A DNA stretch of 64,000 bases. Source: Escherichia coli (GTDB lineage: Bacteria > Pseudomonadota > Gammaproteobacteria > Enterobacterales > Enterobacteriaceae). The position numbers and the translations under genes are program-made. The stretch lies in the NCBI RefSeq assembly GCF_001677475.2, contig NZ_CP015229.1, one strand, 5' to 3'. The stretch's first letter is position 1, and every line of letters starts with the position of its first letter. Under the pieces are notes generated by a model. The model did not search any database. It was not told where the DNA came from and was given only the letters and a program-made list of their open reading frames with translations. Below, piece after piece: positions 37,382 through 40,320 of this stretch.

Positions 37382-38704
37382 TTAACGTAACTCTGGCCAG
37401 TACGCTTTGTTGGCCTCCAGCAACTCATCCAGAATAGCTTTGGCGACCGAGGCGCTCGGTACCGTTTTCGACAACGTAATCGCCTGCCACAGGTGCTGAT
37501 ATGAACGCTGTTCCCAGGCGTCCACGACCAGTTTTTCCACCGCCACTTGCTGACTCATTAACCCTTTCTGAAACTGCGGGATATCGCCGACCACCAGTGG
37601 TTCTGGTCCGTTGTGCCCAACCAGACACGGGATTTCGACCATCGCTTCATCATCAAAGTTATGGATTGCCCCGTTGTTAGGCACAATTAGCAACATCCGC
37701 TCCTGAGTGTTGAAGGCAATTGCCGCCGCCAGATCGACGATGTATGACGCATGTTCGTCAATTTCCAGCTTGCCCGCCGCTGAATTTCCTGCCGCCGTAA
37801 TGGCGCGGCAAGCATCGAAAACCTGTTTCTCGCGATGTTCCATCACCTCATTCGCGCGGGTATGTTCAGGGTTGGAATGCTGAACGACATAATCCGGGAA
37901 GAGATAATATTTCAGATAGGTGTTTGGTAATGTATCCGGGTCCAGTGCCTGGACATCCCGCGCTTTTGCATAGGTGTCGTTCCAGCTCGCTTCAGTATGT
38001 GTATCTTGCTGCGGTGGAACATAACCGTGCTTAGAGACATATTGCCGCAGCTGGGGCATCAGGTCGTTGCCCTGCAAATCTTCAATTGATGTCCACCAGC
38101 CAAAGTGGTTCAGGCCGTAGTAGCGCACGCGCATCTGTTTGCGATCTTGCAGCCCAACAATTTGCGCCATCCGGCTTTCAATACCGATTGGCATGTCACA
38201 GATGTTGAGGATTTTCGCATTCGGGCGCAGACGACGCGTGGCTTCTGCGACAATGGCTGCCGGGTTGGAGTAGTTGAGCATCCAGGCATTTGGTGAATAT
38301 TTTTCCATATAATCCACCAGTTCCAGGACGCCGCCAATGGAACGCATGCCGTACGCTATTCCGCCGGGTCCGCAAGTTTCCTGACCAACAACGCCGTGGC
38401 GCAGCGGGATTTTTTCATCCAGTTCGCGCATCGGGTATTTGCCGACGCGGATGTGCGCCATGACAAAATCAACGTCGCTGAATGCCACTTCAGGATCGGT
38501 GGTGTAACTAAACGCAATGTCCGGCGCTTTTTCTTTAAGGATGACTTTACAGGCTTCGGCAATCACTTCCTGCCGCGCACCATCGTTATCATAAAATTTC
38601 AGTGCACGAAGCGGGAAACGGTCCTGATTCGCCAGGAGCATCAACACGATGCCTGGCGTAAAGGTGCTTCCACCGCCTGCGACAACCACTGAGAATTTGG
38701 TCAT
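37382..38704 (-). CDS. 6-phospho-alpha-glucosidase (glycoside hydrolase family 4; GlvA/GlvG-like), apparently intact
   Basis: 440 aa; N-terminal NAD-binding [15 protein letters not shown]4 core. Confidence 0.85.
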
Positions 38705-40320
38705 TATACTGCCTCCGTAATGGCAACATTTTCTGCTGATTGATGAGAATTAATTAAGCTATCGAGCTGTTCACGCAGCTGGGATACATGCAGACCAATG
38801 ATCACCTGAATGGCATCGCCACTACGGAAGACGCCGTGCGCTCCCAGCTTTTTAAAGACTTCGTCATCCAACGTTTGTGACATGTCATGCAGTGCAATAC
38901 GTAAACGCGTCGCGCAATTGTTAATGCTGGAGATATTGCCGACCCCGCCCAGGGCTTGCAGGATACCGGCAGCCTGATCCAGCTCTTTTTTTGGCTCTGC
39001 CGCGGTGGTTTGGCCTCGCGAGGCTTTGTATTCGGCTTTTGAGTAGAGTTTCACTTCCGCATCTTCACGTCCCGGCGTGCACATGTTGAACTGCAGAATC
39101 AGGGTGCGGAAAACCACGAAGTACAGCAGGGTAAAGCACAACCCAATGGCGATTTGGGTCAGCATCATATCCGCGTGGTTGCTGAACATCGGGATCCAGT
39201 TTTGCGGTAAAACCTGGTCAATCAGACCTCCGCCCATGTTGCCCACCACACCAAAGAGATACATCACGGTCGACATTGAGGCCGCCAGCACGGCGTGTAC
39301 CGCAAACAGCAACGGTGAAATGAACAGGAAGGTAAATTCCAGCGGTTCGGTAATTCCCACCAGCATGGCGGTTAAGGTTGCGGGAATCAGCAAGCCCGCC
39401 ACTTTTACCCGATTTTCCGGTGCGGCAGTGAAGTACATCGCTAAAGAAATGCCCACGGCACCAAAGATTTTTGAGTTACCGTGCAGGGCAAAACCGCCTT
39501 CCGGGAACAATGATTTCAGCGGCTCGGCGCTCAGACTGAACTCTTGCAGATGCTGCGCCCAGTACATCTGAATTCCGCCTTCAACAGCTGCCGGACCAAA
39601 GATAAACGGTCCGTAGATGAAGTGGTGTAAACCGGTTGGGATCAGAATACGTTCGAGGAAGGTGTAAACCCACACCCCAAGCGCACCCGCCGAACGCAGG
39701 AACGCTTGCAAAGATTCAATCCCCATTTGTACTTTTGGCCAGCCGAGCAATGTCAGCCAGGCACAGGGGATCATCACCAGGAAGGCGATGATCACCACAT
39801 AAGACGTCCCCTGGAAAATGCCGAGAAAAACCGGCAGTTTTTTATCGAACAGACGGTTATGCAGCGCCGTCACAATGCCGGAAATGATAATTGCGCCGAT
39901 AATGCTGGTATCGAGGGTTTTAATCCCGGCCATCATTGTCAGACCGCTACCTGCCACCGCGTCCTGAGTGAAATCGACGCCGAAGTAGCTTCCCCAGGTC
40001 ATTCCCATCGCGTTGATGAAATAGTTCCAGGTCAGGAAACTCACCATCACCGCCAGACAAGCACGCCCCTGAGCTTGCTTAGCAAGGCCAATGGGTAAAC
40101 CGACAGCAAAAATCAGCGGCATATTACGGAATACCGTCCAACCGCCCTCTTCAATAATGTGTACGATTTGCGCGAATAAACTGTTCGGATCGGTCAGTGA
40201 TTCCCCGACAAACATCGGGTTTTGCAGCAAGATGGCAAGACCCACCACAATCCCGGCGAAGGGAAACAGCAGCACTGGCGTGAACATCGCGCCGCCAAAG
40301 CGTTGAATTTGACTGAGCAT
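38704..40320 (-). CDS. PTS alpha-glucoside-type EIICB permease (fused; GlvC/GlvB-like)
   Basis: 538 aa from [21 protein letters not shown] with GAGG RBS; C-terminal EIIB with CATRLR active-site motif; the ORF-track N-terminal extension was rejected. Confidence 0.8.

Follow-up and report, generated by a model that had tools for sequence, protein, structure and literature searches.

Within a 64,000-nt stretch of the Escherichia coli contig NZ_CP015229.1 (assembly GCF_001677475.2; this whole stretch is called the window, and all coordinates are window positions), we found two adjoining genes on the minus strand, glvCB and glvG, which are likely to form a working pair for alpha-glucoside uptake and hydrolysis, with their specific regulation lost through truncation of the divergent regulator gene yidP. 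The 1617-bp glvCB gene (38704-40320) encodes a 538-aa enzyme IICB (EIICB) of the phosphotransferase system (PTS) and was called from its open reading frame (ORF), its start and its profile matches. The glvG gene (37382-38704) encodes a 440-aa 6-phospho-alpha-glucosidase of glycoside hydrolase family 4 (GH4) and was called from its ORF, profile matches and structural homologues. Annotation of matching regions placed the window in the emrD-ibpA region of the E. coli chromosome, near dnaA.

Both genes proved to be full-length, with their ORFs at the positions that a first-pass annotation of this DNA had given. The same annotation had described the transporter as one EIIC-EIIB polypeptide with a proper ribosome-binding site, and this description holds: AGAGGA (40328-40333, minus strand) stands as a good Shine-Dalgarno sequence 7 nt 5' of the ATG at 40320, and its GAGGA is invariant in an intergenic alignment of five genera (E. 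coli plus Enterobacter, Citrobacter, Pantoea and Erwinia). The mechanical ORF of glvCB opens at an ATG at 40581, while the homology-supported ATG is that at 40320. The latter start is backed by the alignment to TIGR02005, which begins at residue 2 of the 538-aa form, by the alignment to E. coli PtsG, which begins at residue 3, and by the 1617-bp gene that RefSeq annotates there in other strains. The 625-aa ORF from 40581 was ruled out as the true glvCB, because its 87-codon extension is without a domain match and the ribosome-binding site precedes the ATG at 40320. The glvCB frame does stay open over these 87 codons 5' of the start (40321-40581, minus strand), across most of the intergenic region; without homology support, this stretch is probably open by chance. 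Upstream of glvG, the Shine-Dalgarno sequence GGAGG (38712-38716, minus strand) lies 7 nt 5' of the ATG and within the 3' end of glvCB. The glvCB stop and the glvG start overlap by 1 base in TAATG, an overlap which implies translational coupling of the two genes.

The intactness of the two frames could be an artefact of assembly or sequencing that hides frameshifts, which the first-pass annotation had named as a finding that would overturn its view. No such frameshift was found. The independent public assembly GCA_018682865.1 showed 1 mismatch in 12,261 bp against the window and none in glvCB and glvG, the exact window GlvCB and GlvG proteins each occur on at least 1000 contigs, and the alignments to solved structures are ungapped. 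We consider the artefact effectively refuted. A private damaging substitution in either gene was likewise ruled out, since the exact proteins are common and the independent assembly is identical in both genes.

GlvCB scored 959.2 bits on TIGR02005, the alpha-glucoside-specific model (cutoff 607.3), with residues 2-523 aligned to model positions 1-524, and was under the cutoff for the PtsG, NagE and MalX models. Its domains are PTS_EIIC (PF02378, residues 10-346) followed by PTS_EIIB (PF00367, residues 453-482), with the motif GITEP at residue 322 and the phosphorylatable Cys469 (codon 38914-38916) in NNCATRLR. When aligned end to end with the E. coli PtsG EIICB (8QSR), GITEP was matched and Cys469 lay opposite the cysteine of PtsG CITRLR. 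By sequence, GlvCB is thereby placed in the alpha-glucoside-specific subfamily of the PTS glucose-family EIICB proteins. A Pfam scan found no EIIA domain in GlvCB, and there is no EIIA gene in the annotated neighbourhood of matching loci. With EIIA absent from the locus, Crr (EIIA-Glc) would have to act in trans. RefSeq names are already in place for both proteins, 'PTS sugar transporter subunit IIB' for glvCB and '6-phospho-alpha-glucosidase' for glvG.

GlvG matched the N-terminal GH4 domain PF02056 (residues 6-184, E = 1.9e-66), an NAD-binding Rossmann domain, and the C-terminal GH4 domain PF11975 (residues 195-415, E = 6.5e-56). It aligned without gaps to PDB entry 6DUX ('6-phospho-alpha-glucosidase'; 89.5% identity, E = 1.3e-275), which we take to be AglB of Klebsiella pneumoniae, and to 1U8X (Bacillus subtilis GlvA, 'maltose-6'-phosphate glucosidase'; 73.0% identity, E = 6.5e-225). 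The phospho-beta-glucosidases were much more distant (1S6Y, 1e-61). The motifs GGGS (residue 10), CDMP (residue 169) and NHFGW (residue 199) are the same in GlvG, 6DUX and 1U8X. The glycine-rich motif of GH4 enzymes is their NAD+ motif, and in GlvA the Cys-Asp of CDMP and the His of NHFGW reportedly bind Mn2+ and act in catalysis. The full-length GH4 domains and the identities to 6DUX and GlvA uphold the identification made in the first pass, and on sequence grounds GlvG is assigned to the GH4 6-phospho-alpha-glucosidases (EC 3.2.1.122) of the GlvA/AglB/MalH group.

In the proposed pathway, GlvCB would take up alpha-linked glucosides and phosphorylate O-6 of the glucosyl unit, and the phosphoryl group would pass from phosphoenolpyruvate through EI, HPr and EIIA-Glc (Crr, coded elsewhere) to Cys469 of the EIIB domain. 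In the next step GlvG would hydrolyse the 6-phospho-alpha-glucoside, giving glucose-6-phosphate and the aglycone, by NAD+/Mn2+-dependent oxidation, elimination, addition and reduction. For GH4 enzymes acting on 6-phospho-glycosides, the mechanism has been described as NAD+ oxidation at C3, elimination, water addition and reduction, with an Mn2+ site (PMC10628242).

The pair resembles AglA (EIICB) and AglB (phospho-alpha-glucosidase) of K. pneumoniae (Thompson et al., 2001, and Pikis et al., 2006, both as cited in PMC5309279). Both systems have the EIICB gene followed by the GH4 gene and are without an EIIA domain, and for AglA the reliance on Crr has been demonstrated; enterobacterial homologues also share the divergent GntR/UTRA regulator. 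They differ in species and in chromosomal site, which in E. coli lies between yidL or an insertion sequence (IS) element and yidE, and the regulator is truncated in the window. The B. subtilis glvA-glvR-glvC genes have a different order and a lower sequence identity than the K. pneumoniae system, and GlvR is an RpiR-type activator, not a GntR/HutC protein. On the other hand, B. subtilis GlvA (MalA), 73% identical to GlvG, shares the NAD+/Mn2+ GH4 chemistry, and GlvC (MalP), likewise an EIICB, can use E. coli Crr and allows growth on isomaltose and panose (PMC5309279). When expressed in E. coli, AglA/AglB and GlvC/GlvA gave growth on alpha-glucosides that needed crr, and use of Crr was reported for both K. 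pneumoniae AglA and B. subtilis GlvC (PMC5309279).

We aligned the locus with that of K-12, which the first-pass annotation had described as decayed. The alignment bore this out: K-12 glvCB has an amber codon, and K-12 glvG a frameshifting deletion. The K-12 glvC/glvB/glvG genes lie at this very locus: the DNA is about 99% identical, and yidP, yidE and ibpBA are neighbours in both. Between the window and MG1655, glvCB showed 13 synonymous changes, one missense change (P238Q in K-12) and a CAG to TAG change at codon 369 (39214-39216; CAG in the window, TAG in K-12), and this Q369amber yields the separate GlvC (368 aa) and GlvB of K-12. In glvG, K-12 is without window positions 37604-38111, a frameshifting deletion of 508 bp. 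The deletion is bounded by the direct repeat AGTGGTTC (37597-37611 and 38104-38118), and the presence of this short repeat at both ends suggests that it arose by one slippage or microhomology event and later spread. Thus Q369amber, P238Q and the glvG deletion are all absent from the window, whereas yidP carries an amber codon in the window and is intact in K-12. The three K-12 genes, which have reportedly been the subject of an earlier study, are carried as pseudogenes in RefSeq.

To see how common the intact form is, we counted alleles over 5,426 complete E. coli genomes. The locus was present in 4,284 of them and absent from 1,142. The 508-bp segment, and with it full-length glvG, was present in 1,652 genomes (~30%), among them enterotoxigenic E. 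coli (ETEC) H10407 and O157:H7 genomes. The K-12-type glvG deletion is common, with an approximate count of 2,600 genomes, and the glvCB amber is much rarer, as the sequence around codon 369 was non-amber in 3,922 genomes. Among the compared intact alleles, the ratio of synonymous to nonsynonymous changes was 20:4 for glvG and 52:2 for glvCB, and judged by these ratios E. coli maintains both genes under purifying selection, as is typical of genes that stay in use. The intact glvCB-glvG pair is therefore not a novelty of this strain: it is a common, already annotated and already known presence/absence polymorphism of a well-understood system. Recent horizontal acquisition was unsupported, the GC content of the locus (0.50-0.54) being similar to that of its flanks and the chromosomal site being the same in the 4,284 genomes.

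Four of the matching loci with the 508-bp glvG deletion (L003, L006, L007 and L008) still have the full 538-aa glvCB frame, with 11-18 synonymous changes and 1 nonsynonymous change against the window. The transporter seems, from these sequences, to have been kept, or to have been orphaned only recently, without the hydrolase in glvG-deleted genomes.

The regulator gene showed a different state. The yidP gene starts at 40616 on the plus strand, divergent from glvCB, and codes for a regulator of the GntR/HutC type, with a GntR winged-helix domain (PF00392) and a UTRA domain (PF07702). An in-frame amber codon, TAG at 40874-40876 (Q87*), reads CGC TAG in the window against CGG CAG in K-12, A30 and H10407, all three of which have an uninterrupted 238-aa YidP. 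The 5' part (40616-40876, plus strand) is ended by this amber after 86 codons and contains only the GntR winged-helix domain. The 3' remnant (40877-41332, plus strand) continues in the same frame and codes for the UTRA effector-binding/dimerisation domain, cut off from the DNA-binding domain. Both domains are therefore coded in the window but are not joined in one polypeptide. As the amber splits the DNA-binding domain from UTRA, specific regulation has probably been lost, and YidP is almost certainly non-functional in the window strain. The earlier claim of a functional alpha-glucoside pathway is thus sustained for the structural genes, which are intact and keep their key motifs, but not for normal regulation.

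A three-gene module of this kind, with an EIICB gene beside a GH4 gene and a GntR/UTRA gene divergent from them, also occurs in Enterobacter hormaechei, Citrobacter rodentium, Pantoea ananatis and Erwinia tasmaniensis, and in the last two species the flanking genes are unrelated. These modules have regulators that share 57-77% identity with YidP and EIICB proteins that share 72-80% with GlvCB. This synteny in four other genera implies that yidP belongs to one unit with glvCB-glvG. In C. rodentium (L011, 1641-3123), two tandem GntR/UTRA genes lie upstream of EIICB-GH4, the nearer 57% and the farther 76% identical to YidP.

The yidP amber is rare among complete genomes: of the 5,426, none contained the exact 53-mer around it, and 2 contained the CGG-TAG variant. 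The amber is not unique to the window strain, a possibility which was ruled out by the occurrence of the 86-aa product in 120 blocks of a larger collection. In the loci that were read, at least three yidP haplotypes bear the Q87 amber, and the surrounding locus takes several forms, in which the IS element and the glvG deletion are each present in some cases and absent in others. The amber could accordingly be imagined as a recurrent and possibly adaptive switch rather than mere decay, by which strains with intact glvCB-glvG might become constitutive for alpha-glucoside uptake on losing a YidP repressor. If so, it would parallel, in natural strains, the mutations that are known to activate other cryptic sugar operons of E. 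coli. We regard this idea as improbable. Recurrence was held to be a weak sign of selection, as a single codon was looked at, transitions from CAG to TAG are frequent and the number of genomes sampled is very large.

In the genome of E. coli LR-25 (AP027500.1), an insertion of ~1.3 kb coding for a 402-aa transposase, presumably of IS10 type, lies between glvCB and yidP (L003, 4567-5894). LR-25 thereby has three separate lesions at one locus: the yidP amber, the glvG deletion and the intergenic insertion.

These lesions bear on whether the locus of the window is itself in early decay, with selection relaxed and the open glvCB and glvG frames no longer used in this lineage. Such a course would fit the yidP nonsense mutation, the adjoining IS element that has removed yidI-yidL, the roughly 2,600 of 5,426 complete genomes with the glvG deletion and the 1,142 without the locus, and the combination in LR-25 of yidP amber, glvG deletion and the presumed intergenic IS10 insertion. 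However, both window proteins are identical to alleles found on at least 1000 contigs and have no private substitutions, the IS arrangement is old and common to H10407 and A30, in which yidP is intact, and loss of a repressor does not mean loss of the pathway. We therefore consider early decay unlikely, and a working uptake and hydrolysis pair remains our preferred interpretation.

The 295-bp region between yidP and glvCB has a GC content of 45%. Its best conserved part in the five-genus alignment, with invariant columns, is the block of CATGAAAGCGATCACG (40434-40449, minus strand), a candidate CRP-like site with 3 mismatches to TGTGA-N6-TCACA. A -10-like hexamer, TATCCT (40388-40393, minus strand), reads TATGCT in Enterobacter and Erwinia, and its conservation hints weakly at a promoter element. 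If this hexamer is the -10, the centre of the CRP-like site would fall near -60.5, which is a class I position. Further upstream, the inverted repeat ATGTCTAC-N14-GTAGATCT (40468-40497, minus strand) has equivalent palindromes in Enterobacter and Pantoea and is a plausible candidate for a HutC-type operator bound by YidP. A second palindrome, AACATCTTT-N5-AAAGATGTT (40523-40549), shares AGATGT with the candidate operator; it has no conserved counterpart in the four other genera and is apparently specific to E. coli. An Rfam scan of 35000-41500 gave no match in the operon or its leader.

From this layout, glvCB-glvG would probably be transcribed from a weak CRP-dependent promoter in the shared region, with YidP normally in control. 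HutC-type regulators beside operons for a PTS and a glycosidase, such as B. subtilis TreR and E. coli MngR, are mostly repressors. The TreR-trePA and MngR-mngAB systems are like the present one in having a GntR winged-helix and UTRA regulator beside a PTS EII and a phospho-glycosidase, but differ in their sugars and enzymes, and the likeness to YidP is one of analogy, not of membership; the N-terminus of YidP scored 47.8 bits on the TreR model TIGR02404, under the cutoff. Should YidP be a repressor, the window strain would have a derepressed operon under catabolite control only. By analogy with TreR and MngR, we favour such derepression.

Several observations weigh against a working pair of this kind. 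The genes crr, ptsH and ptsI all lie beyond the window. A standard scan for sigma-70 consensus promoters found none in 37150-40750, with 3.2 expected by chance. An activator would fit equally well with the position of the candidate operator, which is upstream of the CRP-like site, and in that case the amber would silence the operon. The repressor role of YidP, which is listed among the E. coli transcription factors of unknown function (PMC9308461), is argued purely by analogy; the literature searched yielded no function for it. Finally, no report of alpha-glucoside growth by natural E. coli with intact glv was found in the literature searched.

Alternatively, the operon may be phenotypically cryptic. 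Its promoter could be weak or silenced, as with bgl, asc and chb of E. coli, or YidP could be an activator that the operon needs and that was lost to the amber. The missing sigma-70 consensus, the intergenic GC content of only 45%, the activator-like position of the candidate operator, the loss of the UTRA domain from YidP and the lack of reported growth all speak for crypticity. On the other hand, the strong purifying selection on both genes within E. coli implies that some lineages, at the least, make use of them, conservation between genera extends to the CRP-like site, the -10-like hexamer and the Shine-Dalgarno sequence, and the HutC-family neighbours of comparable operons (TreR, MngR) are generally known to repress, again by analogy. 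A cryptic operon is the most serious of the alternatives and a genuine possibility, though we think a pair that works without its specific regulation the likelier state of the window strain.

On the 3' side of glvG lies an element of the IS200/IS605 family (35561-37308; 1,748 bp), recognised by its matches to NF040570 (TnpB) and NF033573 (IS200 TnpA). It contains tnpB (35604-36812, minus strand; 402 aa) and tnpA (about 36820-37251, plus strand), the latter as an open 143-aa frame. Compared with K-12, the element stands in place of yidJ, yidK, yidI beyond its first 19 nt and nearly the whole of yidL, of which the last 77 bp remain as a 3' remnant at 37309-37385. The same arrangement was found in A30 and ETEC H10407, where the tnpA of the same-site element is stop-interrupted and frameshifted, respectively, while that of the window is open. 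Both ends of the element carry hairpin-like sequences of the form GCCCTGAAGGACG(A/G)GG. The guide (omega) RNAs of TnpB derive from the 3' end of tnpB, and at this end (35634-35677, minus strand) we observed a sub-threshold Rfam match to RAGATH-18 of 29.5 bits against a gathering cutoff of 44.9 (E = 0.018), which may be due to chance. Directly 3' of the glvG stop, within the yidL remnant, there is a terminator-like hairpin (37349-37375, minus strand) with a 12-pair stem and a weak T tract. Neither the glvG stop codon nor this hairpin is touched by the IS element, which is a neighbour and lies outside the operon.

The practical value of these findings is small, but the truncated yidP provides an inexpensive experiment of nature for finding out what YidP does. 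For the glv locus K-12 serves poorly as a reference. Many natural E. coli keep full-length glvG, and strain-level metabolic models should not copy the K-12 pseudogene status for glv. Although the phenotype is undocumented in the literature searched, the intact pair suggests that some gut E. coli may use isomaltose or isomers of sucrose, for example the food ingredient isomaltulose.

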